NCBI GenBank assembly: GCA_965247485.1
Contig: OZ252017.1
Coordinates: 837,664 to 901,663, forward strand
Source of the DNA: Dehalococcoidia bacterium
Lineage (GTDB): Bacteria; Chloroflexota; Dehalococcoidia; DSTF01; WHTK01
Direction: 5' to 3'
DNA length: 64,000 nt
Shown here: piece after piece, positions 4,291 to 29,647 of the stretch
How positions within the stretch are numbered: the first letter of the stretch is position 1
How the letters are laid out: each line of letters opens with the position of its first letter
Made by a program: the position numbers and the translations under genes
Notes under the pieces: model-generated
What the model was told of the DNA's origin: nothing
Database searches by the model: none
The model's input: only the letters and a program-made list of their open reading frames with translations

Positions 4291-5112
4291 ATGCAGACAC
4301 CTGACGGTGACGCCGGAATCACCTTTCTCAACTCAACCGACGGTACCAGTCTCGCCTGCCACCATCAAGGCAGCGGGCCGCCGCTCCTCTTCGTCTATGG
4401 AGCCCTGGCCGACCAAACCTATTGGCGAGCCCTGCTACCGTTCTTGCGCGACAATTTCAGCCTCCATATTTTGGAGCGTCGCGGCCGCGGCGCTAGCGGC
4501 GACACCCAACCATACGCGGCAGAACGCGAGGTTGAAGATGTGGTGGCGGCCGTCGAACACATCGGACAGCCCTGTAACCTCTTTGGGCACTCCTCAGGAG
4601 CAATCCTCGCCCTGGAGGCGGCGCGGAGCACACAGCTTGTGCGCCGGCTCCTCCTCTACGAAACGCCCGTTGATACCAGCGGCACTGGGGAGCCAACCTT
4701 GCAGGCAGGCCTAAAGCAGACACTGGAGCGCATCCTGGCTCAGGGTGACCGCGATCAGGCGGTGGAAACTTTCCTCAGAGACGCCTTTGGTGCCCCCGCG
4801 CCGGCAATCGAAAAACTCAAAGGCAGCCCGCGCTGGCCGGACCACGTCGCCCTGGCTCACACGATGCTTTACGACGCCACCGTCGTGTCCCATTTCAATG
4901 GCGGCGAGATTGATCTGGCTGACTTCGCCACGCCGACCCAGCTTATCCTGGGCGGCTCCAGCCCCAGGGAAGACGCTTCTGGTACCAAGATCCTGGCCGC
5001 CGCCCTCCCTGATAGCCGCCTCTCCGTATTGGAAGGAGAAGGCCACAACGGGGTCTACACGGCGCCCGAGCGCGTTGCGGCGATAGTCAGAGACTTTTGC
5101 GCGTTGGAGTAA
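4291..5112 (+). CDS. alpha/beta hydrolase family protein
   Basis: GHSSGA nucleophile elbow, 273 aa; downstream of men genes. Confidence 0.6.
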   Translation: MQTPDGDAGITFLNSTDGTSLACHHQGSGPPLLFVYGALADQTYWRALLPFLRDNFSLHILERRGRGASGDTQPYAAEREVEDVVAAVEHIGQPCNLFGHSSGAILALEAARSTQLVRRLLLYETPVDTSGTGEPTLQAGLKQTLERILAQGDRDQAVETFLRDAFGAPAPAIEKLKGSPRWPDHVALAHTMLYDATVVSHFNGGEIDLADFATPTQLILGGSSPREDASGTKILAAALPDSRLSVLEGEGHNGVYTAPERVAAIVRDFCALE

Positions 5113-5170
5113 CCTGCTTTTCTCACTACACTCTCATGATGGTAGCCACCTCCGCGGCTAAGATGTCCTC

Positions 5171-6133
5171 ATGACCAGCACGATGCAGGACGCGGTTCAA
5201 ACCAACACCGCGTTGGTTGAGACGCGTGACCTGACCAAACGCTTTGGCGCAAAAATTCTGGCGCTGGATTCTCTAAACGTCACCGTCAATGCCGGCGTCA
5301 CCGGCCTGGTCGGCTCCAACGGTGCGGGCAAGAGCACTTTGATCAAAATCCTCCTCGGCCTGATTCCAGCTAGCGGCGGCTCCGCCTCTCTCTTCGGCTT
5401 CGATGTCGCCACTCAAGGTCCCACGCTCAGGCGGTTCGTCGGCTACATGCCGGAGCATGACTGCCTGCCGCCGGACGTCAGCGCCACCGAGTTTGTTTCG
5501 CACATGGCACAAATCAACGGCCTGCCCCGCGCCGCCGCGCGCGAGCGTACCGCCGAAGTTCTGCGCCACGTCGGCCTGTTTGAGGAGCGCTACCGGGCGA
5601 TCGGCGGTTACTCCACGGGCATGAAACAACGCGTAAATCTCGCCCAAGCCCTGGTCCACGACCCCCGCCTCCTGATGCTTGACGAACCCACCAACGGCCT
5701 CGATCCCGCGGGGCGAGACGAGATGCTCGACCTGATCCGCCGCATTGGCAGCGATTTTCAGATGTCGATCCTGATGTCGTCACATCTGCTCGGCGAAATC
5801 GAGCGCGTTTGTGACCACCTGGTCGTGATCGATGCCGGCCGCCTGATGCGCTCCGATTCGATTTCGAGCTTCACTGAGCAAGAGCAAGTGTTGGCCCTTG
5901 AAGTTGATTCCAAACAAGAAGAACTTGTCGACCGCCTCGCCGCCAAGGGCCTGGAAGCGTCAGTAGACGGACGCTTAATCCTCGTGGCCATAGACGGTTC
6001 AGCGCCTTACGACCTGGTTCGAGACGAAATCGTCGACCTCGGTATCGGTCTGCTTCGCCTGGAACAAAGGCGTCACAGTCTAGAAGACCTCTTCCGGGTT
6101 GAGAACGAAGAGGGGGCCGGCTCGGATGGCTGA
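5171..6133 (+). CDS. ABC transporter ATP-binding protein
   Basis: Walker A GSNGAGKST, signature YSTGMKQRV, Walker B LLMLDEPTNGLD. Confidence 0.85.
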   Translation: MTSTMQDAVQTNTALVETRDLTKRFGAKILALDSLNVTVNAGVTGLVGSNGAGKSTLIKILLGLIPASGGSASLFGFDVATQGPTLRRFVGYMPEHDCLPPDVSATEFVSHMAQINGLPRAAARERTAEVLRHVGLFEERYRAIGGYSTGMKQRVNLAQALVHDPRLLMLDEPTNGLDPAGRDEMLDLIRRIGSDFQMSILMSSHLLGEIERVCDHLVVIDAGRLMRSDSISSFTEQEQVLALEVDSKQEELVDRLAAKGLEASVDGRLILVAIDGSAPYDLVRDEIVDLGIGLLRLEQRRHSLEDLFRVENEEGAGSDG

Positions 6134-8704: not shown

Positions 8705-9274
8705 TTAAGGTGCTCCACCCGGGCCTCTGCCGCCACCAGGCAACCCACCAGCGCCGGCGAGAAATCCCAAAGCCTCCGGCACTTTACTGATCGCCGTGGC
8801 CACGAAAGTACCATCCTCGTTTTCGCTTCCAATGACGATCACTTTCTGACCCTCCTCAAGACTGCCAACCTCAGCTTGGCTGAGAAGCTGCAAAGTCGTG
8901 GCCGGTCCGAGCACGATTGTTTGGCTGCCACCGCGGGTTTCGATCGTGATCGAATTCTCGCTTATCGCTGTAATGACTCCACTTGGATTCTGGCCCAACA
9001 AACCTCCTGCTCCGCCGAGACCACCGGCTGAACCGGGAGCCGCGCCCGGCGCAGCGCCCGGTTCAGCGGTGTCGCCGCCGTCACCAGCCGCATTGGCCGC
9101 CGCCGACTGCAGAACATCCGTCCCCAGCAGGGTCTGTAGCTGTTGAGCGCTGAGACCGCTCTCGATCGTCTTCGGGTCGCCGCGGCCCACAGCAATTCCG
9201 GCGCCGAAAGCAACTCCAAGCGCGAGCCCAAACACCGCCACGCCCGCTGCTACCTTGCGAAAATCAAAAACCAT
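8705..9274 (-). CDS. secreted/membrane-anchored Gly/Ala/Pro-rich protein with DUF5666-like beta domain
   Basis: N-terminal TM/signal segment, low-complexity GAAPGAAPG linker, C-terminal ITAISENSITIETRGGSQTIVLG repeat-like domain; last gene of the MacAB-like operon. Confidence 0.45.
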   Translation of the reverse strand: MVFDFRKVAAGVAVFGLALGVAFGAGIAVGRGDPKTIESGLSAQQLQTLLGTDVLQSAAANAAGDGGDTAEPGAAPGAAPGSAGGLGGAGGLLGQNPSGVITAISENSITIETRGGSQTIVLGPATTLQLLSQAEVGSLEEGQKVIVIGSENEDGTFVATAISKVPEALGFLAGAGGLPGGGRGPGGAP

Positions 9275-9310: not shown

Positions 9311-10564
9311 TCATTCGTACCTAAGCGCCTCAATCGGCCGCAGCTTTGCTGCCGGGCGAGCCGGATAAAGCCCAAAGAAAACCCCGATTCCGGCAGCGAC
9401 AGCAAAAGCCATCAGTACCGATGTCCACGACACCACCGTCTGCACGTCCTCTCCCAACCCCGCGATGTCGCGGCCGTCAATAAAGGTCGCTGCCCCCACG
9501 CCGACCAAAATTCCGGCGACTCCACCGATCACCGTCACAGTGAGTGCCTCGGTTAGAAACTGCATCAAGATGTCGCTTTCGCGAGCGCCGACCGCCTTGC
9601 GTATGCCGATCTCCCGCGTCCGCTCGGTCACCGAGACCAGCATGATGTTCATGATCCCGATGCCTCCCACCAGCAGCGAAATACCAGCGATGCTGCCCAG
9701 CAGTACCGTCATCGTCTCGCTGACCTCATTCACCGCCGCCGCGATGTCCTCCTGGCTTTCGATAATCACGTCGGACTCGACAACTTGATGCTGGTCTCGG
9801 AGCAAAAGATCGATCGAGGTCTTCGCCTCGTCGATCTCGCCTTTGTCGGCAACCTGAACCGTGATTTGACTGACAATCGAAGAGTTGCCGGCCCCACGAA
9901 TCGACTGGATTTGGTTTTGGACCGTGGAAATTGGCAGGAAAATCTGGTCGTCGAGGCTGTTTTCGGAGGTGCCCCCCTTGGCTTCAAGGACGCCAACAAC
10001 CCGGACAGTGATCACCAGCCGGCCCAAACCCAGGCGAATCTGCTCCCCGAGAGGACTGGTATCAGGGAATAACTGCTCAGCCACGCTGCTGCCAAGAACC
10101 GCAACCCTGCTGCGCTGGTCGACGTCGGAAACGGATATGAAGGCACCCTCTGCCACTTGCAGCTCATAAGCTTCTGCATAGTCAGCCGTTACCCCAGCGG
10201 CCCTAGTAAAGGTATTCTGGCCGCCACCGCTGACCTGGAGGGGAATCCGGACCTCAGGCGCCACAACCACGGCCTCCGGCAGAAAGGCCAGAATCGCCTC
10301 GGCATCCTCCATCGACAGCGTTTGAGCCGAGCCGGCACCACCCGAAACACCGGCCTGAGTGGATGACCCGGGCCGCACAAAAACCAGGTTGGAGCCCAGG
10401 CCCTCAATCCGGTCCGTAACCGCCTTTTGCGACCCTTGGCCAACCGCCATCAGAGCGATAACTGCCCCAGCTCCGATGACGATGCCCAGCATGGTCAGCA
10501 GAGCCCGCATCTTGTTGGCGATTAGCGCCTCGATCGCGACTTGAACGGCATCCAGGAAGCTCAT
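9311..10564 (-). CDS. MacB/FtsX-family ABC transporter permease
   Basis: MacB_PCD periplasmic domain plus FtsX C-terminal 4 TM; N-terminus [31 protein letters not shown] typical of MacB/LolC/E permeases. Confidence 0.85.
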
Positions 10565-11004
10565 TTGGACTCGGCCGCTTCGGCCACTTCTGCCAGAGCG
10601 CTAGCCGGACTGGCCAGCCGCTCCATTTCCTCCAGGGCCCACCGCGGCGATCCAACCCTGATGTCGTCAACGATCAGGCCGTCACGCATTTGAATAATGC
10701 GCCCGGCATGCTCAGCAATCTCCGCTTCGTGAGTCACATAGATAACTGTGATCCCACGATCCCGGTTAAGGGTTTGGAAAATCGACAATATTTCCAGGCT
10801 CGTCCGGCTGTCAAGATTGCCGGTCGGCTCATCGGCGAGGATTAGAGATGGACCGGTTATCAGGGCGCGGGCGATGGCGACACGTTGTTGCTCACCGCCG
10901 GAGAGCTCTGCCGGCTTGTGGAACAGGCGCTCGCCTAAACCAACCGCCTCGAGCGCCTCCGCCGCCAAGGGCAGGCGGTCACGTATTCCCCGGTAGAGGG
11001 CCAA
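10561..11004 (-). pseudogene. ABC ATPase (MacB/LolD type), C-terminal 147 codons only (Q-loop to H-loop); first codon TTG is the internal Leu of ...ELPLALYRG...
   Basis: [15 protein letters not shown] signature, [11 protein letters not shown]alker B, VTHE H-loop; lacks Walker A, which lies on the opposite strand immediately adjacent. Confidence 0.85.
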
Positions 11005-11333
11005 TGATAGAACTCACAGAACTGACCAAGGTTTACGAGATGGGAGAGCACCAGGTTGTGGCTCTGAACCGCGTAAATCTGAGTATCGAAGACGGGGAAT
11101 TTGTCGCGATCATCGGAGCATCCGGTTTGGGGAAATCGACACTGATGAACGTTCTGGGATGCTTGGATCAACCTACTTCTGGGAGTTATGAACTGGACGG
11201 CCTCGCCGTGGGTGAGCTTACCGAGGATGATCTGGCTCTGGTGCGCAATCAGGCAATTGGATTCGTCTTCCAAAGCTATAACCTGCTGCCGCGGATGCCG
11301 GCGGTGCGACAGGTCGAGCTGCCGTTGGCCTAA
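11004..11333 (+). pseudogene. ABC ATPase N-terminal 109 codons (Walker A) of the same gene, inverted relative to the rest of the operon
   Basis: [46 protein letters not shown]...QVELPLA then stop; continues seamlessly into the minus-strand fragment once the 320-bp segment is flipped. Confidence 0.85.
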
Positions 11334-12976
11334 GGTGCCTGCAGCCCTCTTCCACCACCGCCGCCAGGAACGCCGACTGGGCCGGGAAACTGCTGCTCTG
11401 TCGTTTGCTGCGTCTGAGTTCCGCCGGTCGATGCGGCGATAACCAAGACCTCATCGCCCGGCTCAAGGCCCGAAAGAATTTGAGTCAGCGTGCCGTTCGT
11501 CACCGGGCGGACCTCGTCTCCAGCAGGCGTTTTGACGGTCACGACTTGCTGCCGGCCGGCACCGCTGACGGAGCGCGACGGTACGACCGGAGCGTCATCC
11601 ACCCTCTCAGTCGTCACGAGAATCGACGCGGTCATGCCAGGCGCCGGCAGCGGCACGTCAGTCGCCAAGTCTGCCGTGTTGATCGTCAGGTTGACCGAGA
11701 AAGTGACAACGCCCTGCTGCACCGAAGGAGCCGGGCCGATGGCGCTGACTTCCGCGTTATAGGTTCTGCCTGGCATGGCGTCGAAAGTCACCGTTGCGCT
11801 CTGACCAACCGCGAGGTTGATAATATCGGACTGATCCACGCTCGACTCGATCTCGACCAAGTCCGGATTCATCACCACGATGACTTCCGCCGTTCCCGAG
11901 ACACGGTCGCCCACGACCAAGTTGACTTCGCTAACCAAGTCATCAAACGGCGCAACGATCGTCGCCGCTTCGAGATCGCTGGCGGCGTTTTCCACAGCGA
12001 TCTTCGCTTGTGTAAGCGAAGCCTCCAGCGGCGCGACAACATCTGCTGCCGCTGGACCCATCAGCTCCGCGTATCGCGCGTCGGCCGCGCCCAGTGACGC
12101 GCGAGCCGTTTCCAGACTCAGTTGCACACTTTGAATCTCGCCCGCGTCCGGGCCGGCCAGAGTTTCGTCATATTTCTGCTGGGCAACAACCAGCCCCAAT
12201 TCCGCACTTTCGATCGCGCGCTCCAAGCTCCCGCTGCTGACCCCTTCCAGGTTTTGCGGATTGCTCAAATCGCTCCGTGCTTCTACCAAGGCATCCCTGG
12301 CGTTTTTCAGAGCTGTCTGCGCATTAAGAAGTGATTGCTCGGCCGCCGCGATTTCACTCAGCGTGGGCTTGCTGAGCACCTCATCCAGGTTGGCCTCCGC
12401 CGTCAAGACCTGGCCTTGGGCAGAGGAGATTGACTGCAGAGCCGATGCGGTGTCACTCGCACTCGCACCTTCAAGCACCGCATCCAGGCGCGCCTGAGCC
12501 GAAGCCAGCGAGGCTTCGGCAATCGCCAGCGACTGTTGAAGCTCCGTATCTTCGATCCGCGAGAGTGGTTCACCCGCCGCGACGCTTTCACCAAGGTTGA
12601 CCAGCACCTCGGTTACCTCGCCGGCACTGCCGAACGTTAGCGCCGCCTGTTGTCCGGCAGCCGCACTACCGCTGGCTGATATCGTGCTGTTCAAGGTCGT
12701 TTCAAACGCGGGAATGTAGGTCGCCGCGGTTGGCAAGGGAGCGTTCAGATCCGTTGCCGAGGCGTAGACCTTGTATCCGACAAAGGCCATCGCTAATCCC
12801 AGAACGACAAGGGCGATCACTTCCAACGACGAAGGTCCCCGTGAGATAGATCTCCCTTGCAACAACAGGCGACCGCGACCTCCATCGGCAATTGACTGGC
12901 TCAAAGTAAAATCCTTCTCAGCGATCCTAGTTCTCGCTCTGGAGGCATTTATCAAGAAACCTTTAAACAACAGCAA
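11330..12976 (-). CDS. HlyD-family periplasmic adaptor (membrane fusion protein) of the MacAB-like efflux system
   Basis: N-terminal TM anchor, long coiled-coil (Ala/Leu/Gln-rich), beta-barrel C-terminal domain; 548 aa; upstream of ATPase and permease. Confidence 0.75.
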
Positions 12977-13499: not shown

Positions 13500-14156
13500 A
13501 TGATGTCCATGCGACTTTTGCTGGGCACCAAGATCACCGAAGCTGAGCCCGATTGGCGCCAAGCACTGCCGCGGCGTCCGGTGCTGATCGATCTCGGCGC
13601 CGGTGACGGCCGCTTTGCCTATGAACAAGCCAGGCACGATCCGGAAAACCTCTATGTCGCCGTCGACGCTGATAGCGCCACGCTCTCTGAATACGCCTTT
13701 AAAGCCGCCCGCAAGCCCTCCCGTGGCGGGATCGGCAACGCGATTTTTGTCGTTGCGGCGGCCGAAGCGCTGCCTGAGGAGCTGGCGGGCATCGCCAGCC
13801 TTATCCGGGTCAATTTTCCCTGGGGCAGCCTACTGCGCGGCCTTGTGCTGCCGGAACCCACCATCCTCAAGGCCGTAGCCGGTTTGGCTAGTCCTGACGC
13901 ACGCTTTGAGTTTGTCATCTGCTACGACCCGATTCATGACCTCGCCGGCCTCGGCGGTGAGCCCCTCAAGCCGCTGGATCAAACCCGAATCGACACCGTC
14001 TTGGAGCCGGCTTACGCCGCCGCAGGCCTGCTTCTAAAAGCCCGCCGCAAGCTCGACCTCAAAGAAGCCCTGGCCATTCCTTCGACCTGGGGTAGGCGTC
14101 TCGCCTATGGTCACCGCCGGGATGTCTTTTTGATTGAGGGCAGCTTTCAAGTCTGA
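13500..14156 (+). CDS. KamB/NpmA-family 16S rRNA (adenine1408-N1)-methyltransferase homolog (aminoglycoside-resistance type, class I SAM MTase)
   Basis: Family-like motifs along the whole length: LGTK..., IDLGAGDGR (SAM motif I), YVAVD, KPSRGG, NAIFVVAAAEALPEEL, FPWGSLL, RFEFV, WGRRLAYGHRRDVF; 218 aa like KamB/NpmA. Confidence 0.65.
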   Translation: MMSMRLLLGTKITEAEPDWRQALPRRPVLIDLGAGDGRFAYEQARHDPENLYVAVDADSATLSEYAFKAARKPSRGGIGNAIFVVAAAEALPEELAGIASLIRVNFPWGSLLRGLVLPEPTILKAVAGLASPDARFEFVICYDPIHDLAGLGGEPLKPLDQTRIDTVLEPAYAAAGLLLKARRKLDLKEALAIPSTWGRRLAYGHRRDVFLIEGSFQV

Positions 14157-14218: not shown

Positions 14219-14947
14219 ATGGAGCCCTTCATGCTGAATGCGCGCAGCCTCCTGTTCGTCCCGGCCAACAGCGAGGCGATGATCGATGAAGCCGCTGCCA
14301 GCGCTGCTGACGTGGCCGTCCTCGATTTGGCGAACTCTGTGCCCGTGGACCAGAAAATCGCGGCTCGTTCCACGATTCGCTCCACCATCGAAAAACTCAA
14401 GGCAGCGGGCAAGACCGTCCATGTCCGCGTCAGCCATCTCGACTCCGGTTTGACCACGGAAGATTTATCCGCGGCTATCGGGGCCGGTCTCGACGGCATC
14501 GTCTATCCCAAGACCGATGCGCCCCACCAAATTCGAGAGCTTGATGTCTTGATCCGTCAGCAAGAGGTTAGCCACGAAGTACGGCCCGGCACCGCCGGCC
14601 TGTTCCCGCAGCTTGGCAGCGCCAACGGCCTCCTACGCTGCGAGGAAATCGCGCTCGCCTCAACCCGTATCGCCGGCCTCTCCCTCGACATTGAAGCCTA
14701 CACGGCCGATGTCGGCATCTTGCCGACCAGCTCCGGGCACGAACTAGACTATGCTCGCAACGTCCTGACTCACTGCTGCGCCGCGCATAAGCTGATGCCG
14801 CTCGACGTTGCCTTCTCAGAAGTCAAAGACCTTGCCGGACTCACCGAGGAAGCAATTCGCGCCCGCTCGCTTGGCTTCAAAGGCAAGTACCTGATTCATG
14901 CCGACCAAATCGACGCCGTGAACCGCGCATTTGCCCGGACGTCTTAA
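14219..14947 (+). CDS. HpcH/HpaI aldolase / citrate lyase beta (CitE)-like protein
   Basis: N-terminal RSLLFVPANSE...VLDL motif typical of CitE/malyl-CoA lyase family. Confidence 0.7.
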   Translation: MEPFMLNARSLLFVPANSEAMIDEAAASAADVAVLDLANSVPVDQKIAARSTIRSTIEKLKAAGKTVHVRVSHLDSGLTTEDLSAAIGAGLDGIVYPKTDAPHQIRELDVLIRQQEVSHEVRPGTAGLFPQLGSANGLLRCEEIALASTRIAGLSLDIEAYTADVGILPTSSGHELDYARNVLTHCCAAHKLMPLDVAFSEVKDLAGLTEEAIRARSLGFKGKYLIHADQIDAVNRAFARTS

Positions 14948-17796: not shown

Positions 17797-17870
17797 GCGG
17801 CCAAGGTGTTGTGGTGGCATTCGTCCCTCCCACGGATGAGGCGGGGGTTCAATTCCCCCTGGCCGCTCCA
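17797..17870 (+). tRNA. tRNA, probably tRNA-Gly (anticodon CCC), 74 nt with encoded CCA; integration target of the downstream island
   Basis: Acceptor GCGGCCA/TGGCCGC, anticodon stem CGTCC/GGATG with loop CTCCCAC, T-arm GGGGG-TTCAATT-CCCCC, discriminator T, CCA; D-stem is weak (GTGT/GCAT), hence moderate confidence. Confidence 0.55.
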
Positions 17871-17871
17871 G
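17847..17871. repeat. attL core: 25-bp direct repeat GTTCAATTCCCCCTGGCCGCTCCAG (tRNA 3' end), identical copy at 30205-30229
   Basis: Exact 25/25 match between the two positions. Confidence 0.7.
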
Positions 17872-17897
17872 TCTTTTGCTTCGGTTTTGTATCTAAA

Positions 17898-17919
17898 AGA
17901 GGCCCGTGACAGGGCCTCT
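17898..17919 (-). terminator. perfect 8-bp stem-loop (AGAGGCCC-GTGACA-GGGCCTCT) between tRNA and integrase stop; possible integrase terminator (weak T-tract)
   Basis: Inverted repeat read directly; followed on minus strand by TTTAGAT. Confidence 0.3.
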
Positions 17920-17947
17920 CTAGGGTTCTGACCGCCTATCTGACCGC

Positions 17948-19075
17948 CTAACCGTGAAAAAGCTTATCCATGACGCTTACAGCTTGCTCCTGGGCGCCCT
18001 CGATCACGTGAGCGTAAATGCGCAATGTAGTCGAGATGTCGCTGTGGCCGAGCAGCTCCGAAACCACCTTGACCGGGACACCCTGAGAGAGCAGAACGGT
18101 CGCCGCGGTGTGTCTCAAATCGTGAAATCTCATTCGTGGTAGGCCTGCCTTGTCAAGTAACGGATGCAGCCCGCGGCTTAGGACGTGGCTATTGTCTAGG
18201 GGCTTGCCGAGCGCGTTTGTGAATGCGAGCCCGTATTCTTTCCACGCGGCGCCGGCAAGTTGGCGCTGACTGGGTTGATTAAGTCGATGGGTTTCTAGGG
18301 CCTCGCAAGCGGTTGCCGATAGCCAAACTGTGCGGCGTGACTTCTGAGTCTTCGGCTGGCCAAACAGAGGCTCGCCACCTCTCACTGTGGTCAACGTGCG
18401 GCTCACCTGAACCCGTTGGCGCTCGGTGTCTATGTCGCTCCACCGCAAAGCTTGGAGCTCGCCGAGTCGAAGACCTGACGTTAGTGCGAGGACAAAGAAC
18501 GCCTCAAGGGGATGACCTCTCGCGGCCTCGAGAAGCTGACGGGCATCCTCCGGGCCCAGGTGTCTTTGCTCGCCAGTGCTGCGCCGCGGCGGCGTGACGA
18601 GCGATGCGACATTTCGCCCAACAAGGCCCAGGCGCTCGGCATCACGCAAGGCGACATGGAGAACGCCATGACAATGCGCCACGGTGGTTGCACTGACTCG
18701 CCTTCCAATGGAGGCATAGGCTGCTCGCAAATCGGCCGGCTGAAGCTTGGAAAGGACGCGCCTTCCGAGTGCTGGCCCAAGATGTAGACGGCAAAGTGTG
18801 TTGTAGCGGCGCCACGTTTCCGGCCGTAAATCGCCCTGCTTGCCCTCTAGCCAGCTCGACAAGTACGCGCCAACCAAGAGTTTGTCACCTAGCAACGGGA
18901 GATTATCGTCCTGGCGCTTCTGGGCGTCCCGGAGCTTTTTGGAGACCTCAATGCGAGTCTTGCCGAATAGTGACCGGCGCCGCCGTTTTCCCGTGCTGGG
19001 CAGCGTTAGAGTGGCCTCCCAGCGGCCGTCTGCACGGAGACGGATGCTGCCTTCGCCCTTACCTCTCCGAGTCAT
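17948..19075 (-). CDS. int: tyrosine-type site-specific integrase
   Basis: C-terminal catalytic region HDLRHTAATVLLSQGVPVKVVSELLGHSDISTTLRIYAHV (R..H..R..Y); adjacent to tRNA and att repeat. Confidence 0.9.
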   Translation of the reverse strand: MTRRGKGEGSIRLRADGRWEATLTLPSTGKRRRRSLFGKTRIEVSKKLRDAQKRQDDNLPLLGDKLLVGAYLSSWLEGKQGDLRPETWRRYNTLCRLHLGPALGRRVLSKLQPADLRAAYASIGRRVSATTVAHCHGVLHVALRDAERLGLVGRNVASLVTPPRRSTGEQRHLGPEDARQLLEAARGHPLEAFFVLALTSGLRLGELQALRWSDIDTERQRVQVSRTLTTVRGGEPLFGQPKTQKSRRTVWLSATACEALETHRLNQPSQRQLAGAAWKEYGLAFTNALGKPLDNSHVLSRGLHPLLDKAGLPRMRFHDLRHTAATVLLSQGVPVKVVSELLGHSDISTTLRIYAHVIEGAQEQAVSVMDKLFHG

Positions 19076-19077
19076 CG

Positions 19078-19848
19078 TTAGCCTCCCTTTTTAATCATGG
19101 CAAGACGTGCCGCTATGTCATCTACATAGACCCCTCTAGGGGCCATTTTCCGGAGCCAGGAGTGAACAGGGCCCATTAACTCTGCGCCATATTTGATGTG
19201 TATAATCTCCGGATCTAGGATGTCTTCGTAAGTAAGTTGGGTGTCGGCTGTCTTTGGCTGGTAAGGGAAGGATTTCTCGCCAGACTGCGGCGGCCAAGTG
19301 CCACGAAACTCTTGGTGGACGCGAGCGTATGTTTCGTCGTCACGCCATAGAGCCCACCCCAAATATGCCTCCAAAGTCCGGCGGTCGGTCTCAGAAGCCC
19401 GCTCTGGCCTGCGCTCCCAAAACGCGAGGTCGACCGCCATCCACATACGGCTTTGGGGGCTGGCGTCGGGGGCAGCCTGCGTAACACGCCAAAACCAAAG
19501 CATGACCGGCAACAAAGGCCGTTTCAAACGATCTCCGATTGGGTTTAGTTCCCTTGCCAGATCGAAAAAGGCAGAGCTTGCTTCCCATGGTAAGGATCCG
19601 TCATCACTGAACGACTCGGGCCAGGTGACCACCTCTAGCCATCGACGTTCAGGGTTTGGTATCCGGGCCTCTCGGATGATGTCACTGACCGCACGAAGGC
19701 TGGGAGTCTTCTTACCCTTATACCCTTCCAGTCCCTCGGCGATCTTTGCTTGAATTAGCCGGCGCATAACCACGGCTCCCATCTGGCTATGGTTAACTGC
19801 GTTCACCTCAATCGTCCTACGGATTTGTGGATCGATTCTTGCTGGCAT
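19078..19848 (-). CDS. hypothetical protein, leftward gene next to int (position of a satellite/prophage master regulator)
   Basis: 256-aa ORF, Trp/Arg-rich, no recognisable motif. Confidence 0.45.
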   Translation of the reverse strand: MPARIDPQIRRTIEVNAVNHSQMGAVVMRRLIQAKIAEGLEGYKGKKTPSLRAVSDIIREARIPNPERRWLEVVTWPESFSDDGSLPWEASSAFFDLARELNPIGDRLKRPLLPVMLWFWRVTQAAPDASPQSRMWMAVDLAFWERRPERASETDRRTLEAYLGWALWRDDETYARVHQEFRGTWPPQSGEKSFPYQPKTADTQLTYEDILDPEIIHIKYGAELMGPVHSWLRKMAPRGVYVDDIAARLAMIKKGG

Positions 19849-19997
19849 TTGCCTACAAATCCTCCCTAGCTGCTATGTCCTTGGATTTTACTTCCATAGC
19901 ATTGCCATTCTGGCGCTTGACGACTGCCATACCAGGATTGATTCTACATCTCAGCAGAGGGCTGTCAAGGGATGGCAACCGCAAGAGGAGGCACCAA

Positions 19998-20192
19998 ATG
20001 GTAACCGAGACCACACGGCTAGCTTATCGAAGGATGGAAGCTGCAAAGGCCATCGATGTCAGCACCGACACCCTGGACAGATTGATTCAACGCGGAGAGA
20101 TCAAGTCTTTCAAGATCGGCGCCGCCATCTGCATCAGCGCTGACGAGCTCACACGTTTCATCAGAGAGCGCGAAGCGGCCGGCGGCGGCTAG
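19998..20192 (+). CDS. excisionase/AlpA-like helix-turn-helix DNA-binding protein
   Basis: AKAIDVSTDTLDRLIQRGEIKSFKIG HTH; RBS GGAGG upstream of ATG 19998; divergent from int. Confidence 0.55.
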   Translation: MVTETTRLAYRRMEAAKAIDVSTDTLDRLIQRGEIKSFKIGAAICISADELTRFIREREAAGGG

Positions 20193-20198
20193 CGCGAA

Positions 20199-20456
20199 GT
20201 GACGACCGCTGCCCATCATCCCAACTTCGTAGAACGCGACGAGATCTTGCGCCTACATCCAGGGCCGTGGAAAAAGAGCGGCGCCTGGCAGATGGCCTTC
20301 TGCCCAGTTCTAGCGCACGGCGACGGCCAGAAGCATGGCGGCAGGGGTGGCGAGTCCCTCGGGCTCTCAGACAAGGGCGTGCTCTCCTGCTTTGCTGGCT
20401 GTGCCTTTCGTGATGTCATGGCAGCGCTGCGGGCGGGTGATCAGGCGATTCGATGA
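20199..20456 (+). CDS. primase CHC2-type zinc-finger domain protein (separate small ORF preceding Toprim gene)
   Basis: CPVLAHGDGQKH...SCFAGC resembles the DnaG CHC2 zinc-binding motif; GTG start; stop overlaps next start. Confidence 0.5.
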   Translation: MTTAAHHPNFVERDEILRLHPGPWKKSGAWQMAFCPVLAHGDGQKHGGRGGESLGLSDKGVLSCFAGCAFRDVMAALRAGDQAIR

Positions 20457-22288
20457 CACCTTTGGGCGCTAAGCCGACGAACTGGTATGGCGAGACGATC
20501 TCGGGCTGGTATGGATATCAAGATGAAGCTGGCTCGGTTCGGTTTGACGTTGCGCGAACGCCCAGCAAAGAGTTTCCTGTCTATCACCCGGAAGGCACGA
20601 AATGGGCCAAGGGGTACGGCGGTCGGCGAATCCTCTACCGACTCCCCGAACTATTAGAGGCAGATCCAGCCGAGCCGGTTCTCTTATGCGAGGGCGAGAA
20701 GGACGCTGACCGGGCCCGGGCCGAAGGGTTCACCGCCACCACTACGCCAGGCGGCGCCTGGGCGGCTGATCATTGCGACCTCGGGCCGCTCGTTAATAGA
20801 ACTGTCGCGATCCTCCCAGACAACGACGAAGGGGGTGAAAACTATAGCTCTACGTTAACGGGCCTACTCGTTGGCAAGGCCGCCTCGATCAAGGTCATTG
20901 ACCTAACCGGCGTTCCGCCAAAAGGCGACGTTAGTGATTGGTTCGACGCCGGGCATGGCTCTGAGGAACTGAAGCAGTTGATCGGGCAACAAACGCCGGT
21001 AACACCCGTTTCTCCTCCGCAGCCTTCCACCTCGCAATCAACTACGTTGCTATTCCGGACGCCGCGACAAATCGCCCAACTCACACCCGAAACCCCAGAC
21101 GCGGTGGTCGCAGGCATCCTTGTAAGAGGCGCAATGACGGAAGTCAGCGCCAAAATCAAGACCGGCAAGACGACCTTCATGGGGCACTTAATCGCTGCTG
21201 TTCGCTCTGGGCACGACTTCTTAGGCTTGAAAACAAAACGCACAGCTTTTGTTGTGCTTACTGAGGAGCGAATTCAAACAATGCGAGCGGCCCTAGGGCG
21301 CGTCGGCCTTCTAGATGCGGACGATGTCCACATTCTCTCTCTGTACGACGCTGGCAAGCTCCCATGGCCCGACATAGTTGCCGAGGCGGAGAAATATGCC
21401 AAGGAGGTTGGCGCCGGCGTTATCGTCGTGGATACGCTTACTCGCTGGGCGCGCATTCCAAGCGATGATGAGAACAGCTCTGGCGCCGCGGCTGAAGCTA
21501 TTGAGCCCTTGGAGGCGGCAGCTGCTCATGGGTTCGCAATCCTTGTTATCCGTCACGACCGAAAAAGCGGAGGTGAGCTAGGAGACAGCGCTCGCGGGTC
21601 GTCAGCATTCGGTGGTGCTGCCGACATCATCCTCAACCTTCGCAGAGCGAATACCGAAGGCCATGAAAGTCGCCGGATATTACTAGGCGTCGGGCGCTTT
21701 GATGACGTTCCGTCTCAACTGACTATCGAGCTTCAAGCCGGCCGCTACGTAGTTCTTGGCGACACTGCCGCCATAGAACGTGACGAAACAAAGAGCCGAC
21801 TCCTGGACGTTTTGCCAGGTGTAAGCGGAGACCCTATTCGAGAGGATGATGTTCTTGCGCGGCTTGGCACTGAAGCAAAGAGATCAACTGTTCGGCGCGC
21901 CCTCAATGACCTGGTCGCGAATGCGTCCGTTGAACGAGTCTCCGGACTTGGGACGCGAGGCACTGCGAAAGGCTATCGCTTAGGCTCCCGTTACTCTACT
22001 GACCAGCCTATAGAGATGGACCCTGGTCAGAAGACTAACTCTCACGTTCCTGAAAGTAACGTGGATTACTTTAGTGACCAGCCCCATACCCCTGGTCAGA
22101 AACATAGTCCCCTACTCAACGGAAACTCTACTGACCAGCCCCCATTTCCTATAGGTGGTCAGTTGGGTAAGAACGACCTTTGCACAGAGCTTGGGTGTGA
22201 ACGTCCCGGTACTCACGCCAATCCAACCGATGGTGAGCTCGTTTGTCTGTATCACTTCACGCGGATGACCGCTGAGGTTGCGTCGTGA
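20453..22288 (+). CDS. Toprim-domain DNA primase fused to RecA-like (AAA_25/RepA-type) helicase domain; repeat-rich C-terminal tail
   Basis: Toprim motifs LCEGEKDADRA and ILPDNDEGG; Walker A KTGKTT, Walker B VIVVDTL; C-terminal STDQP/PGQK repeats and a Cys-rich tail. Confidence 0.8.
   Translation: MTPLGAKPTNWYGETISGWYGYQDEAGSVRFDVARTPSKEFPVYHPEGTKWAKGYGGRRILYRLPELLEADPAEPVLLCEGEKDADRARAEGFTATTTPGGAWAADHCDLGPLVNRTVAILPDNDEGGENYSSTLTGLLVGKAASIKVIDLTGVPPKGDVSDWFDAGHGSEELKQLIGQQTPVTPVSPPQPSTSQSTTLLFRTPRQIAQLTPETPDAVVAGILVRGAMTEVSAKIKTGKTTFMGHLIAAVRSGHDFLGLKTKRTAFVVLTEERIQTMRAALGRVGLLDADDVHILSLYDAGKLPWPDIVAEAEKYAKEVGAGVIVVDTLTRWARIPSDDENSSGAAAEAIEPLEAAAAHGFAILVIRHDRKSGGELGDSARGSSAFGGAADIILNLRRANTEGHESRRILLGVGRFDDVPSQLTIELQAGRYVVLGDTAAIERDETKSRLLDVLPGVSGDPIREDDVLARLGTEAKRSTVRRALNDLVANASVERVSGLGTRGTAKGYRLGSRYSTDQPIEMDPGQKTNSHVPESNVDYFSDQPHTPGQKHSPLLNGNSTDQPPFPIGGQLGKNDLCTELGCERPGTHANPTDGELVCLYHFTRMTAEVAS
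21994..22165. repeat. three imperfect copies of palindromic unit CT(A/G)(C/T)TGACCAGCC-N7-14-CCTGGTCAGAA inside the primase-helicase gene 3' end (candidate replication-origin iterons)
   Basis: CTGACCAG / CTGGTCAG inverted arms at 21998-22030, 22075-22100, 22131-22162. Confidence 0.5.
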
Positions 22289-22938
22289 ACCGCCAGGAGA
22301 GGCGCCGGGCGGGCAAAGCCGACAAGGGCCTCACAGAGAAGCTACGCGCTGAGCTACCCGGTATTCTCGGCTGGGCTGTGCGTGGGTGCCTTGAATGGCA
22401 ACGGCGTGGCCTCGAGCCGCCGGCCTCTATACAAGCAGCGACCGACGACTATCGCACTGAGAGCGATCCTTTAGCGGGCTTCCTCGCTGAGTACTGCGTT
22501 CTTGGTGACGGGCTGGCATCACCAGCCAACCCGCTGTACAAGGCCTACGCCCGGTGGGCGGCTGATCAAGGTTATCGCGACCGCGAATTGCTCACGAGCA
22601 CGGCATTTGGGCGGCTGGCGGGGAGTCGTTTCGACAGTGGCCGGAGCCGCGCCGGGAAGGTTTATTACGGCCTAGGTCTCTTAAATGCACAGCAAAGTGA
22701 TCTAAAGGTGACGGGTTTCACGTCTGACGACCCGTCACTTCCACTAAACCTTCCTATGTATTCACCTACGCGAGATTTGTTAGAAAACTCGTCACAACCC
22801 GTCACACCCGTCACAGAGGAAAACGAGCTCTGCACTCAGGCCAATTGCGACCTTCCGGGCACCCACGCCGAGCCAACTACTGGCGAACTTGTTTGCCTTG
22901 CCCACTTCCAGAAATTGGCTTCAGAGGTGACGTCGTGA
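22285..22938 (+). CDS. phage/plasmid primase P4-family C-terminal domain protein (D5/PriCT-like)
   Basis: Conserved pattern GILGWAVRGCLEWQRRGL...TDDYRTESDPLAGFLAEYC; ends with same Cys-rich tail as preceding gene. Confidence 0.6.
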   Translation: MNRQERRRAGKADKGLTEKLRAELPGILGWAVRGCLEWQRRGLEPPASIQAATDDYRTESDPLAGFLAEYCVLGDGLASPANPLYKAYARWAADQGYRDRELLTSTAFGRLAGSRFDSGRSRAGKVYYGLGLLNAQQSDLKVTGFTSDDPSLPLNLPMYSPTRDLLENSSQPVTPVTEENELCTQANCDLPGTHAEPTTGELVCLAHFQKLASEVTS

Positions 22939-23068
22939 ACCGTGAAAATCGGTGGCTCATGATGAGGGGGAAGGGGCCCTCGGATACTTCTCAGATATGG
23001 AAACGAACACCGCTACCCTACCACTCCTCGCACGCGGTCAGGTTTCAACCAAGGGGGGTTCAGCCTTA

Positions 23069-23545
23069 ATGGGTTCTCGCGGACCTTCGCCAAAGCCCAC
23101 AGCACTAAAGGCCTTGCATGGCACCGCTCGTCGCGACCGGAGCAATCCAAGCGAGCCTCAGCCGCAGGTCACCGCCGTTTCTTGTCCCGCGTTCCTAGAC
23201 TCCGCGGCGAAGGCAGAGTGGCGCCGGCTCATCCCGCACCTGGTCAAGTTGAAACTCATGAGCGATCTAGACCGGGGCCTCCTCGCTGCCTATTGCGCGG
23301 CCTGGAGTCGCTGGCGGAAGGCGGAGCTTGCGATCCAGAAGTTCGGTGAGGTCTTAGCGACGCCAAGCGGGTATATGCAGAAGAACCCTCACGTGACGAT
23401 TGCCAACGAATCAATCAGAACGCTCGAGAAACTGGCGGGGCACTTCGGTCTGTCGCCATCCACAAGGACGCGGGTTAGCGCCACACCAGAGGAGCAGGAG
23501 GACGATCCATTCGATGAATGGGAGCAGCGAAGGAGGTCGAGGTGA
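23069..23545 (+). CDS. terS: phage terminase small subunit, P27 family
   Basis: GPSPKPTALKALHGT...AKAEWRRLIPHLVKLKLMSDLDRGLLAAYCAAWSRW...NPHVTIANESIRTLEKLAGHFGLSPSTRTR matches the P27 TerS pattern; ATG 23069 preferred. Confidence 0.8.
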   Translation: MGSRGPSPKPTALKALHGTARRDRSNPSEPQPQVTAVSCPAFLDSAAKAEWRRLIPHLVKLKLMSDLDRGLLAAYCAAWSRWRKAELAIQKFGEVLATPSGYMQKNPHVTIANESIRTLEKLAGHFGLSPSTRTRVSATPEEQEDDPFDEWEQRRRSR

Positions 23546-23937
23546 TAAGGGCCATGATCGAACCGCTAACCGAAACCCCACCGCCGCCGGACTTCATCGG
23601 TAACCGAGATGCGGAGTGGGTGCGCGACTGGCACACACTCGCCGGAAAGCTCGTCGCATCGCGCACCTTGGCCGAGCTGGACCTAGTAATGCTCTGCCTG
23701 CTTATCGACGCTTGGCAGATCTACAGCCGCGGCCTTCGAGACATCGCCCGTTATCCAGAGCCAGAAGGCCTAAGGGAATCAATCGAAGAATGGCGGCTTC
23801 ACGCTCGCCAAGCCGCCAGTGAGTTTTTTCTTATACCTGAATCGCGAATCAATTTAGGAATCGTGGCCGACGCCGGCGGAGACAGCGAGTTATCGGCCCT
23901 TTTTCGAGAGAACAACGACGAATCAATCACGCAATAG
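23518..23937 (+). CDS. hypothetical protein with weak TerS-like helical pattern (second small-terminase-like/packaging-interference candidate)
   Basis: DAEWVRDWHTLAGKLVASRTLAELDLVMLCLLIDAWQIY mirrors the P27 A..EW..L...L..L.D...L...AW spacing. Confidence 0.35.
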   Translation: MGAAKEVEVIRAMIEPLTETPPPPDFIGNRDAEWVRDWHTLAGKLVASRTLAELDLVMLCLLIDAWQIYSRGLRDIARYPEPEGLRESIEEWRLHARQAASEFFLIPESRINLGIVADAGGDSELSALFRENNDESITQ

Positions 23938-24689
23938 CGGGCCGTAGGCCCGCCCAGTCAAGGGAGGAAAGACGATGGCAGCCACAGCGATTCAGGAAAT
24001 TAGCAAAAACGCGAAAGTCGACTACTGGCAGAACGATCATCCCTACGAGGTGGTTCGCATCGAGCCGTGAATTCCTGGACGAAATTGACTCATGATTATT
24101 CCTCGAGCATTTGAGGGCACATGGCTTGAGCCAGAGGAGCCTGCCTGGCGACCTGGAGACCCTTTCCCTGCGCCGTGGATACGTGAGGAATCGGAGAGAT
24201 GGTTAAGAAACTAATCAGCGAGAGCACCTCGCCAAGTTGAAGATGGTGACTGTTTTTGGTACGCCGAAAGCCCATAACTGGACAACTTACGCTCTGTTTA
24301 GAGTGAGTCTACAGCTGTGAATCGCCCGCCGCTTAGTAGCGTAGGCTTGGAAGGCAGATCGCACCGTGCGCTGTAGCAGCGTATCTAGGACCGTGAGCGA
24401 GAGCTGTCCAGTTATGGTGTGAAAGTTCTTGGGATTTTCTCCTACGCGATGCGGCGCCGTCCGGCGACCATGCTAAGAAGCCATGCAGTCAACGAAACCC
24501 TTGCCGACCCGCAGTTTGTCCGCGCCAATCCCAGGCTATCAATGCCTTAATCTCCACGGTCGGGACCTAAACTGTCCAAATTCTTACGGCCCTCGACCTG
24601 AACAGCGATGGCGCTGAGATTGACGAAGAGGACCGCCAATAGGCCACAGCAAGTCAGATTCGTGGTCGTGTATGAGGCGGGAAAGGATG

Positions 24690-24810
24690 GTTTGCCGGAA
24701 GGAGGCTCGAACCCCCAAGGCCTCGCGGGCGGCGGATTTTAAGTCCGCAGACGATAGGTTACTGACGTGTACTACCGTCCGCCCACGATGCGATTTGGTA
24801 GGCTTTCGGC
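24690..24810 (-). pseudogene. tRNA-Leu(TAA)-like remnant with ~30-nt insertion in the D-arm region (pseudo-tRNA)
   Basis: On minus strand: anticodon arm GCGGA-CTTAAAA-TCCGC, long variable arm, T-arm GGGGG-TTCGAGC-CTCCT, acceptor GCCGAAA/TTCCGGC with one mismatch; total about 120 nt, too long for an intact tRNA. Confidence 0.3.
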
Positions 24811-24981
24811 CGCCTACGTCCTGCGTCGGTTGAGGTTGTCCGTCCCGGTTGCTGTCTAATTTGCTGTCATTGCTCAATGCCGATGGCCCGCTACCGCTTG
24901 CCACCCACTTCATTCGGAGCGTCGCAAGTAGGTCGTTGTCGTTGCGACATTGCCTAGTATCAGCTGATCTCGTTCAGAAAG

Positions 24982-26034
24982 ATGCCGTACACGACAATGA
25001 TGAGAAGGCGGGGACGATACGGAGTCCCAATGCAGACGTACGGGTCGATCATCCCAGGCGGTCCAACCCTGGCTCGTCTCCTCCCAGAGGGAGCGCAGGA
25101 AGGCAGGGAGGAGCCACGACTATCACGTGAGGCGAAGGCGCGCCTCAGGGCTGTTGAGTGGCACAAGGATCACGGCGAGAAGGTGAGTCTGACGGCAAGA
25201 CGCTTTGGACGCAGCCGCTCAACCCTTTACTAGTGGCTAGAGTGCTACCGGCTCCGGGGTCCGCGGGGTCTGGAAGACCGCAGCCATAGGCCACACCAGG
25301 TCCGCAAGCCGACTTGGAGCCTAGAGTTCGAAGCAGCGGTGCTACGCCTGCGCCAAGACAATCCCGTCTGGGGCAAAGACAAGCTACAGCCGATCCTCAG
25401 ACGCGAAGGGGTCACTATCTCGGTCTCGATTGTGGGCCGCATCCTTAGCCGGCTCAGACGCCAAGGCAAACTGGGGCCTGCGAGTCTGAAGGACCCTTGC
25501 ATCGTCTCTCGGCCTCAGGTGCGGCCCTATGCCGTGCGTGAGCCCAAAGACTACGTCGTCAAGGCGCCGGGAGATCTGGTTCGGTGGACAGCGCCGACGT
25601 GCGCTGGACCGGTATTACCTGGCGCGTGATATTGTCAGCCGCTGGGACGTCTTGGGTGTCTACGGCCGCGCTACCGCCGGCACGGCGCGCGACTTCCTCG
25701 ATACGGTCATCGAGCGTATGCCGGGTCCGGTGAAGGCGATCCAGGTGGACGGTGGCTCTGAGTTCAGGGCCGAGTTTGAGGCCGCCTGTGAGCAGAAGGG
25801 GCTGCGGCTTTTTGTGCTGCCACCATGCTCCCCCAGGCTCAACGGCTGCGTGGAACGAGCCCAGCGCACCCACAAAGAGGAGTTTACCAGTTGGTTGACC
25901 CACCCGACTCGCTCAGCCAACTGAGAACCCAGCTGCTCCAACAGGAGCAGCGTTACAATACTTACCGGCCCCATCAGGCCCTTGGCCATCTAACGCCGCA
26001 AGAGTGGCTGCTAGCATTCACCGAGAGGAAGTAA
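24982..26034 (+). mobile_element. degraded IS481-family insertion sequence (transposase ORF split into at least 4 frames)
   Basis: HTH piece (24982-25233), LRLRQDNPVWGKDKLQPILRREG piece, DDE/rve core (DGGSEFRAEF...LPPCSPRLNGCVERAQRTHKEEF) and C-terminal YNTYRPHQALGHLTPQEWL piece in different frames. Confidence 0.7.
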
Positions 26035-26102
26035 GTGTCCGGCATCTACTGGACGAGTACAAGCACTTGCGCCTTCCAAACCGTCGCCCTACACTAATTG
26101 CA

Positions 26103-26129
26103 TTAGCACTCGCTTTAGCCGAGTGCTAA
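26103..26129. promoter_or_regulatory. CIRCE operator (HrcA binding site), perfect consensus TTAGCACTC-N9-GAGTGCTAA
   Basis: TTAGCACTC (26103-26111), 9-nt spacer, GAGTGCTAA (26121-26129); 40 bp upstream of groES. Confidence 0.85.
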
Positions 26130-26170
26130 ACTACGATAAAGCCTGAATTTATCCCCACGAGGAGGTCAGA

Positions 26171-26467
26171 ATAGCTTCGAGACTAATCCCTCTTGCCGAC
26201 AAGCTTGTTCTTAGGCCGATTGTCCAGGAGGAAGTCCTCTCCAGCGGAATCGTCATTCCAGACACCGCCAAAGAAAAGCCTAACCAGAGCGAAATCATCG
26301 CCGTGGGTCCAGGAAAGCGCGACGAGGACGGCAAAGTGATCATCCCGGAGGTCGTGATTGGTGACCGAGTGCTTTACGCCAAGTACACCGGCCAAGAGAT
26401 CAAGGTAGAAAATGAAGAGCTAATCGTTCTAGCGGAGAAAGATATCCTCTGCAAGGTCGAAGTCTAA
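26171..26467 (+). CDS. groES: co-chaperonin GroES (10 kDa chaperonin); apparent ATA start codon 5 nt after GGAGG
   Basis: Translation (I)ASRLIPLADKLVLRPIVQEE...GIVIPDTAKEKPNQSEIIAVGPGKRDEDGKVIIPEVVIGDRVLYAKYTGQEIKVENEELIVLAEKDILCKVEV; not in ORF track because no ATG/GTG/TTG start. Confidence 0.75.
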   Translation: MASRLIPLADKLVLRPIVQEEVLSSGIVIPDTAKEKPNQSEIIAVGPGKRDEDGKVIIPEVVIGDRVLYAKYTGQEIKVENEELIVLAEKDILCKVEV

Positions 26468-26491
26468 GTCCGCCCGCGTTAGGAGGGTCTA

Positions 26492-26551
26492 TTGGCAAAA
26501 CAAATCGTTTTTGATGAAGAGGCGCGTCGCTCACCGAAGGGTGAATCGTGA
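26492..26551 (+). pseudogene. groEL: groEL 5' remnant: 19 codons (L/M)AKQIVFDEEARRS... then unrelated sequence and stop
   Basis: AKQIVFDEEARR is the conserved GroEL N-terminus; RBS AGGAGGG upstream; TTG start; reading frame terminates at 26549-26551. Confidence 0.6.
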
Positions 26552-26769
26552 GTAATCACACAGGCCTTCAGTACGAAGGATACATTCAAGAAACAGGGTT
26601 CGGGATAAGTGAACTAGTACCGAGCGCCAACGAAACCATGGAAGACATTGTGTCGGCTTTAAAGGCTGCTGCAGAACGCCTCAAGCTTCACGTCCTTATT
26701 TGGGTGGATGAAGACAGGATTCTGCTTGCGTGTCCGCCTCCTGCCTTTGCCGGCATGCAGAGAAGTTAG
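26548..26769 (+). CDS. hypothetical small protein (73 aa), lower-GC cargo
   Basis: ORF only; non-repetitive composition. Confidence 0.25.
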   Translation: MSNHTGLQYEGYIQETGFGISELVPSANETMEDIVSALKAAAERLKLHVLIWVDEDRILLACPPPAFAGMQRS

Positions 26770-28517: not shown

Positions 28518-28518
28518 G

Positions 28519-29097: not shown

Positions 29098-29279
29098 ATG
29101 AAGACGCCGGCATTGCGTTAAAGGCACTGCTGGAGGCCCCCTTAGCTCGTCAGGCCCTTGTACGCCGCCACGTCGAACTCCTCCACAATCGGGGAAGAAT
29201 GGCTGCCGGCAGTCCTGATTCTTTTAGAGGCTGAAGAGAAGCAGGCAGAGGCGGAGCGGCTGGACGCAGAGGGCTCGCT

Positions 29280-29585
29280 ATGACTGCTAGTCAACCCACC
29301 GAGACTTTCATCGTTCACGTACAGGACACTGAGACTATGCAGCTCCTCCAGTACCAGGTCGACTTCGGCGCGGCTACCGCAATTCGGGAATTATGCCGGG
29401 CATTGCAGGGTGTAGGCCGGGCTCAAGCCTCCGATGTGGGTGAGGCTCCCGTGACCACTCAGGAGCTTCTCCAGCTCCACGTTGAGGCTCTCCTGACGGT
29501 CCCCGAAGAATGGCTGGAATCGGCGCTGATCCAACTGGAGTCATGGGCCAAGATCGCCGGCGACTACCAGCCAGACACGGGCTAA
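29280..29585 (+). CDS. hypothetical acidic protein (101 aa)
   Basis: ORF with decent codon periodicity; no motif. Confidence 0.35.
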   Translation: MTASQPTETFIVHVQDTETMQLLQYQVDFGAATAIRELCRALQGVGRAQASDVGEAPVTTQELLQLHVEALLTVPEEWLESALIQLESWAKIAGDYQPDTG

Positions 29586-29647
29586 GGCCAGGCGTATAGT
29601 CGAAGGAATGACCGCGGGCGAAAACAAGACAGGCCTAATGAGACAAA

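Follow-up and report, generated by a model that had tools for sequence, protein, structure and literature searches.

A non-conservative micro-inversion splits the ATPase gene of a MacAB-like efflux operon that is probably being lost in one lineage of a Dehalococcoidia bacterium

Within the 64,000-nucleotide stretch of the Dehalococcoidia contig OZ252017.1 that was analysed here (hereafter the window), the ATPase gene of an efflux operon lies in two pieces on opposite strands, and turning the segment between two 6-bp inverted repeats joins the pieces into one open reading frame. This arrangement raises the question of whether the locus is a reversible switch caught in its OFF orientation, a gene inactivated by a chance rearrangement, or an error of assembly. 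On the minus strand, the operon reads HlyD-type membrane-fusion protein (MFP), ATPase, permease with MacB_PCD and FtsX domains, and a DUF5666 protein, an order that had been given in the preliminary description and with which Pfam agrees (Table 1). The presence of an MFP, an ABC NBD with Walker A, Walker B and signature motifs, and a MacB_PCD/FtsX permease in one operon identifies it as being of the MacAB/YknXYZ type. Its gene content is that of the MacAB-TolC and YknWXYZ-type (type VII ABC) efflux systems, namely an HlyD/YknX-like MFP, an MJ0796/MacB/LolD-like NBD and a MacB_PCD+FtsX permease. In E. coli MacB, however, NBD and permease are fused, whereas they are two separate polypeptides here; the operon also differs from these systems in that a DUF5666 gene follows and in that the NBD gene is split in this strain. 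The two ATPase halves were confirmed in the sequence where they had been described, and a reading of the open reading frames of the window revealed a split gene with no fusion ORF. The N-terminal fragment is identical to a public protein of 109 aa (P0125). A public gene call of 135 aa on the same contig (P0123) is a shorter form of the C-terminal fragment, whose ancestral coding sequence starts at 10997 and whose stop overlaps the permease start (ATGA).

Table 1. Coordinates of the features discussed in the text (positions within the window).
Feature	Position	Strand	Remarks
Secreted DUF5666 protein gene	8705..9274	-	last gene of the operon; intact; Pfam
Permease gene, MacB_PCD + FtsX	9311..10564	-	417 codons, intact; Pfam
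ATPase C-terminal fragment ORF	10561..11004	-	TTG start, 147 codons; signature LSGGEQQRV, Walker B, H-loop
Inverted block, 331 bp	10998..11328	+	only stretch aligning oppositely to conspecifics
Left repeat copy, GGCCAA	10999..11004		ancestral; part of GGGCCAATG in all relatives
ATPase N-terminal fragment ORF	11004..11333	+	109 codons + TAA; Walker A; G23R and S42L private
Right repeat copy, TTGGCC	11325..11330		made by the join; relatives have TTGGTC at the homologous site
HlyD/YknX-type MFP gene	11330..12904	-	524 codons from the TTG start used in relatives (relatives 528)
HEFGH-motif protein gene, 317 aa	15008..15961	-	intact in relatives; private deletions of 1 nt (15254), 7 nt (15518) and 1 nt (15541)
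Tyrosine integrase gene, tRNA-Gly island	17948-19075		unique in a 15-billion-protein collection
AAA_25 replication protein gene, tRNA-Gly island	20453-22288		
D5-like protein gene, tRNA-Gly island	22285-22938		
Small terminase subunit gene, tRNA-Gly island	22952-23545		
OMP decarboxylase and BtpA genes, within tRNA-Gly island	27729-29097		

Reverse complementation of positions 11005-11324 in silico gave a single ORF of 254 aa, as had been claimed. The restored ORF matches Pfam ABC_tran and, when compared with PDB sequences, aligns end to end and unbroken at the junction with the NBDs of MJ0796, MacB and LolD (E ~1e-63). A protein search with the restored ATPase, one of the checks that had been proposed, found an intact 253-aa protein of 98% identity, far above chance, on a 3.33-Mb contig of the same species; two related species carry ATPase proteins that are 88% and 79% identical. 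A contig scan with the permease yielded, among the matches listed, distant homologues of at most 52% identity. We then compared the orthologous operons in these genomes, as had likewise been suggested. The conspecific set comprised 11 assemblies, that is, the 3.33-Mb contig and ten further loci, which come from different samples and bear differing assembler-style names; these 11 loci are 99.3-99.65% identical to the window. In all of them and in both related species the ATPase is intact (253-277 aa) and co-oriented between MFP and permease, with the same synteny, which in the 3.33-Mb contig and the two related species extends over more than 20 kb. DNA comparison of the window with the 3.33-Mb contig gave identities of 99.7% and 99.1% on the two sides of the inversion, and positions 10998-11332 were the sole part that aligned in the opposite orientation. 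When one conspecific contig was tiled over about 51 kb and a second one over 44 kb and both were compared with the whole window, this 335-bp block was the only strand-switched segment in the approximately 50 kb shared with the two genomes. Moreover, protein cluster look-ups located annotations of both ATPase fragments on one public contig only (3,064,122 bp), whereas intact 253-aa versions were found on many contigs. The inverted allele is thus present in one of the 12 assemblies of the species and the collinear allele in at least 11, so that the derived state is private to one lineage and the collinear, ancestral state is found in close relatives and outgroups alike. A search of the JGI metagenomes for the inversion-specific junction and for an allele-neutral 27-mer gave no match to either.

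The changes at the two junctions were determined by an exhaustive search over breakpoints and small losses of bases. The ancestral junction bases are identical in all 11 conspecifics and read TTAGGCC/GGGCCAATG and CCGTTGG/TCTACC, where the slash marks the breakpoint. On the sense strand, all 11 conspecifics have ...CACCTTAGGCC/GGGCCAATGATAG... on the 5' side and ...GAGCTGCCGTTGG/TCTACCGGGG... on the 3' side, and the window has ...CACCTTAGGCC/AACGGCAGCTC...CTATCATTGGCCC/TCTACCGGGG...; at the 3' site, P-L-V-Y-R-G is encoded in the two related species as well. The window could be reproduced only by inverting a segment of 331-333 bp with the loss of 2 bp, and no zero-loss model fitted. The region measures 629 bp in the window versus 631 bp in its ancestral form, with two SNPs left over. 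In the best reconstruction, segment 9995-10325 of the conspecific locus L081 is inverted and 2 bp are lost; the most economical block is GGGCC...GTTGG, with a length of 331 bp. This block runs from the final 6 nt of the ancestral MFP-ATPase spacer through ATPase codons 1-109 to the first base of codon 110, and its bases at 11327-11328 (GG), which constitute the 2-nt junction microhomology, can be assigned equally to the flank. The MFP-proximal junction shows this microhomology (CC/GG) inside a quasi-repeat that matches at five of six positions (TAGGCC versus TAGACC). The far junction was joined blunt, and three spacer bases (GGG) moved there, where they now read CCC. Flipping the segment back in silico yields ELPLALYRG (254 aa) versus the native ELPLVYRG (253 aa), with one extra codon, and leaves an MFP-ATPase spacer of 4 nt versus 9 nt in relatives. 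Since 2 bp were lost overall and 3 nt of the spacer changed place, the exchange was not conservative, and the terms 'clean' and 'precise' that had been applied to the inversion do not hold against the 11 conspecifics. What the junctions do display is homology of zero to a few nucleotides and a small loss of bases, with no mobile element or recombinase site. Conservative recombination in a pre-existing 4-bp repeat (CCAA/TTGG) was considered and rejected; it predicts TTAGGCCGGG-CCAA...TTGG-TCTACC, which is not observed.

The 6-bp inverted repeats had been described as flanking the segment, and both are indeed present at those positions. The right copy, however, is absent from the intact conspecifics and was created by the join, its TTGG coming from the end of the inverted block and its CC from the MFP-proximal flank. 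Paired repeats of the kind that would serve as recombinase sites in both states were therefore not found: only 6 bp are perfect, and the conspecifics read TTGGTC at the right. The repeat is exactly 6 bp long, and the agreement of the flanks beyond it, at 10 of 40 positions, does not exceed the chance level. Inverted 6-bp pairs at spacings of 200-500 bp are common, the window containing 6,419 of them; a stretch of 1.4 kb has 286 pairs with a length of 6 bp or more. We also simulated random 331-bp inversions with a 2-bp loss, and a symmetric terminal inverted repeat of at least 6 bp resulted in 40 of 20,000 (0.2%). Since so few random events produce such a repeat, the breakpoints appear to have been guided by short pre-existing homology, and breakpoints guided in this way are a hallmark of illegitimate rather than site-specific recombination.

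The only recombinase near the operon had been said to be an island integrase. In agreement with this, the proteins scanned in the 64-kb window included no invertase-type gene, and the tyrosine integrase of the island was the only recombinase found. Its action at the ATPase junctions was examined as a candidate and rejected, since the longest string that the junctions share with the 20-bp att core of the island is 5 nt. This att core is the direct repeat TGACCGCCTATCTGACCGCC, found at 17929 and 30090. The island itself is a segment of about 12.2 kb (17871-30088) that directly follows tRNA-Gly(CCC) (17797-17870) and is absent from the conspecifics, where about 0.94 kb of different sequence takes its place; the island is the only other structural difference from the two conspecific genomes compared over the whole window. 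Judged by its integrase, AAA_25, D5-like and terminase genes, it looks like a phage-satellite-like integrative element.

We asked how the operon has evolved in this lineage by counting the substitutions private to the window. The four operon genes contain 3 synonymous and 14 nonsynonymous private SNPs, and 28.9 kb of other genes contain 20 and 25, respectively. Synonymous private density is thus about equal in the operon and in the other genes (0.72/kb versus 0.69/kb), whereas nonsynonymous private density is 3.35/kb versus 0.87/kb, a 3.9-fold excess (binomial p=1.8e-4); a Fisher 2x2 test of the synonymous/nonsynonymous proportions gave p=0.08, which is suggestive only. Such a nearly four-fold excess of nonsynonymous changes at equal synonymous density classically marks a relaxation of purifying selection. 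The MFP gene accounts for 6-8 nonsynonymous and 2 synonymous private changes, the permease gene for 3 and 1, and the DUF5666 gene for 1 nonsynonymous change. Both private substitutions in the inverted block, G23R and S42L, are nonsynonymous, and the latter falls inside Walker A (GASGLGKST versus GASGSGKST in relatives).

Further lesions accompany these substitutions. The MFP gene has a private in-frame deletion of 12 nt (~11499-11502), which removes TTGT (residues ~470-473), and 1 nt is missing upstream of it (13063). The gene for the HEFGH-motif (zinc-peptidase-like) protein, for which a Pfam search found no family, is frameshifted in the window, with 9 nt lost in total; a stop codon falls between the shifts. 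Each of the six length changes private to the window is a deletion. The five that lie outside the inversion are all on one side of it, at 11.5-15.5 kb; comparison with the conspecific genomes found no private indel in about 40 kb elsewhere, the island edge excepted. With a split ORF, an excess of nonsynonymous changes and private deletions, the locus bears the marks of a pseudogene that has lost its function and its constraint. The nonsynonymous excess at equal synonymous density suggests that, for much of the private history of the lineage, the pump either did not function or could be dispensed with. Import of the divergent tract at 11-16 kb by recombination together with the island was also considered; it is unlikely, since private SNPs are at background level at 16-17.9 kb, beside the island, and since synonymous density is not raised.

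Several observations concern the surroundings of the operon and variation within the species. About 0.5 kb from the operon lies a gene for an NpmA-family 16S rRNA (adenine1408-N1) methyltransferase (13500-14156, plus strand; Pfam E 1e-55), which is kept in all relatives. The NpmA family is of the aminoglycoside-resistance type, and the conserved gene beside the operon hints at an antibiotic-related neighbourhood. Between it and the frameshifted gene, an HpcH/HpaI aldolase gene (14219-14947, plus strand) carries 4 private nonsynonymous and 0 synonymous changes, so the zone of relaxed constraint may reach beyond the efflux operon. Among conspecifics, the most variable small region is a 104-bp tandem repeat at 33916-34181 (2.6 copies, 87% matches) with G/C homopolymer runs and numerous indels, which are not the same in the two relatives compared. 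The 3.33-Mb relative (ctg125213; loci L099/L106) lacks 8 nt at each of window positions 45528 and 46360, in two adjacent DUF4389 genes, which are called at 168 and 292 aa there, the remaining genomes having 209 and 211 aa; private frameshifts therefore occur elsewhere in the species as well. In locus L088 (positions 5049-5617; 5x coverage by its contig name), the DUF5666 gene of the operon is split into calls of 103 and 97 aa, which reflects either an error of the consensus at low coverage or independent damage to this operon.

Taken together, these data make it probable that a one-off, non-conservative inversion associated with short homology turned the ATPase gene into a pseudogene, within an efflux cluster that is being lost in this lineage. 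An illegitimate, recombinase-independent inversion of 331 bp across the 5' end of the ATPase gene would have occurred in a single lineage. Both breakpoints would have fallen at ancestral short quasi-repeats (TAGGCC against TAGACC, and GGCCAA against GACCAA), each matching at five of six positions. One junction would have been sealed through the 2-nt microhomology with 2 bp lost, and the second joined blunt, 3 nt outside the repeat. The pathway may have been a template switch during replication or break-and-rejoin repair, the junction pattern being unlike that of site-specific recombination; with one junction lacking microhomology, template switch and end joining are both compatible with the data. 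The sequences compared show the ancestral state, the exact changes at the junctions, the uniqueness of the allele and the signature of relaxed selection; this pathway and the order of the lesions are points that we infer. Judged from sequence, the placement of the Walker A half on the opposite strand would leave the pump without a functional ATPase, and the four-gene operon and a neighbouring gene would then evolve unconstrained and gather deletions in this lineage. The accumulation of deletions in operon and neighbour makes the inversion appear as one lesion in the ongoing loss of a dispensable cluster. Among the explanations originally put forward, a recent rearrangement mediated by short inverted repeats and fixing a pseudogene is thus the one that our data favour, with two amendments: the exchange was not conservative, and the inversion is probably not very recent, because the operon already shows relaxed selection and further lesions.

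The alternatives were weighed against the same data. An assembly or sequencing artefact, in which a chimeric or low-quality backbone read or collapsed strain heterogeneity would hide an intact gene, could account for the occurrence of the inverted allele in one assembly only. The clustering of private small indels beside the inversion could likewise reflect a locally poor consensus of a long-read metagenome, and the L088 split and the 8-nt deletions of ctg125213 show that other assemblies of the species have frameshifts too. However, no assembler graph can be misled by a repeat of 6 bp. An internal inversion of 331 bp, for which one molecule must contain two junctions, is in general not the usual foldback or ligation chimera. 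In addition, the junctions look like molecular joining, with 2-nt microhomology and 3 nt carried over, and consensus errors of the indel type do not explain a 3.9-fold nonsynonymous excess at unchanged synonymous density, an excess that argues against an artefact and that a real loss of function does explain. We therefore regard an assembly artefact as unlikely. Engineering, which had been named in the same breath, is excluded, since the public record carries annotations of the two fragments and neither junction matches the ancestor. Another explanation accepts the inversion as real and attributes it, together with the five small deletions and the extra substitutions over 4.5 kb, to a single episode resembling microhomology-mediated break-induced replication (MMBIR), in which a broken or stalled fork would have restarted in an error-prone manner and two template switches would have produced the inversion. 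Junctions of the microhomology or blunt type would fit such an episode, as would the position of the five further deletions, all within 4.5 kb on one side and none in the 10.4 kb opposite (chance ~6e-6 under uniform placement), and a private SNP density in the deletion zone of about 2.5 times the background. Relaxed selection, however, explains the same clustering more simply. A mutagenic episode should have raised both classes of substitution, yet synonymous density is not raised; indels that are all deletions fit ordinary pseudogene decay, and the permease and DUF5666 genes, which lie on the other side of the inversion, also have an excess of nonsynonymous changes. This explanation seems to us decidedly improbable, more so than an artefact.

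Least credible of all is an ON/OFF inversion, programmed or at least reversible, in which an inverton lying wholly or partly within the gene would make the pump vary in phase and the window would show the OFF state. In its favour, exact 6-bp inverted repeats now stand on either side of the block, the flip opens a 254-aa ORF, and premature stops created by intragenic invertons are on record (Chanin et al., bioRxiv 10.1101/2023.03.11.532203). Those invertons share with the ATPase inversion an inversion end inside coding sequence, changed ORFs and a truncated protein. They are, however, defined by recognisable inverted repeats (11-bp in the validated thiC example), by reads in both orientations within samples and by a presumed invertase (bioRxiv 10.1101/2023.03.11.532203). 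At the ATPase locus no such repeats are seen, one contig is inverted as against at least 11 collinear assemblies, and no invertase was found among the proteins scanned in the window. Relative to the intact allele the exchange was not conservative. The right repeat copy is missing in all 11 intact conspecifics, the repeat has no extended similarity, and pairs of its length and spacing are commonplace in the window. The flipped product, moreover, would differ from the native protein (PLAL versus PLV) and its spacer would be 5 nt shorter, and the scan of the window found no invertase. A switched gene should also be kept under purifying selection, whereas this operon shows a nonsynonymous excess, S42L in Walker A and evolution without constraint, the opposite of what a maintained switch predicts. 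The on/off switch that the preliminary description had listed as a candidate is not supported by this comparison, nor by the finding of the inverted orientation in only one of 12 assemblies.

With the inversion read as an illegitimate event in a decaying operon, it can be set beside rearrangements known from elsewhere, as one more example of an established type of mutation. Spontaneous inversions in E. coli are reportedly conservative and occur between perfect repeats of ~12-23 bp. Like them, the ATPase inversion is small, has short inverted homologies at its ends, involves no dedicated invertase and is a rare mutation that alters a gene; unlike them, it was preceded only by quasi-repeats matching at five of six positions, lost 2 bp and displaced 3 nt. 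Pseudogenes in bacteria are said to decay with a deletional bias. The pattern here is the same, with several inactivating lesions specific to the lineage, length changes that are all deletions, and a raised nonsynonymous rate at an unchanged synonymous rate; the lesion in the ATPase gene differs from the usual ones in being a micro-inversion and not a frameshift, a stop codon or an IS insertion. Microhomology-mediated, U-turn-like inversions of organelle genomes are mostly single-junction events in rare molecules (Genome Res 2015, PMC4417113). They resemble the present case in that their junctions are associated with replication or repair, have very short homology and need no recombinase, whereas the present inversion has two junctions and is fixed in the assembled chromosome of a bacterium.

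In an environmental bacterium, the locus offers a natural case, resolved to the base, of a micro-inversion with two junctions and microhomology. It also carries a caution, in that a split gene which can be mended by a flip between short inverted repeats mimics a phase-variation switch. Comparison with conspecifics shows that part of the repeat was produced by the join itself and that the flip fails to regenerate the native gene; screens of MAGs for invertons should therefore require conservative junctions and reads in both orientations. For annotation, the two ATPase fragments on the public contig should be labelled as one pseudogene. The biological weight of the event is small, and it represents one more route by which a dispensable gene dies.
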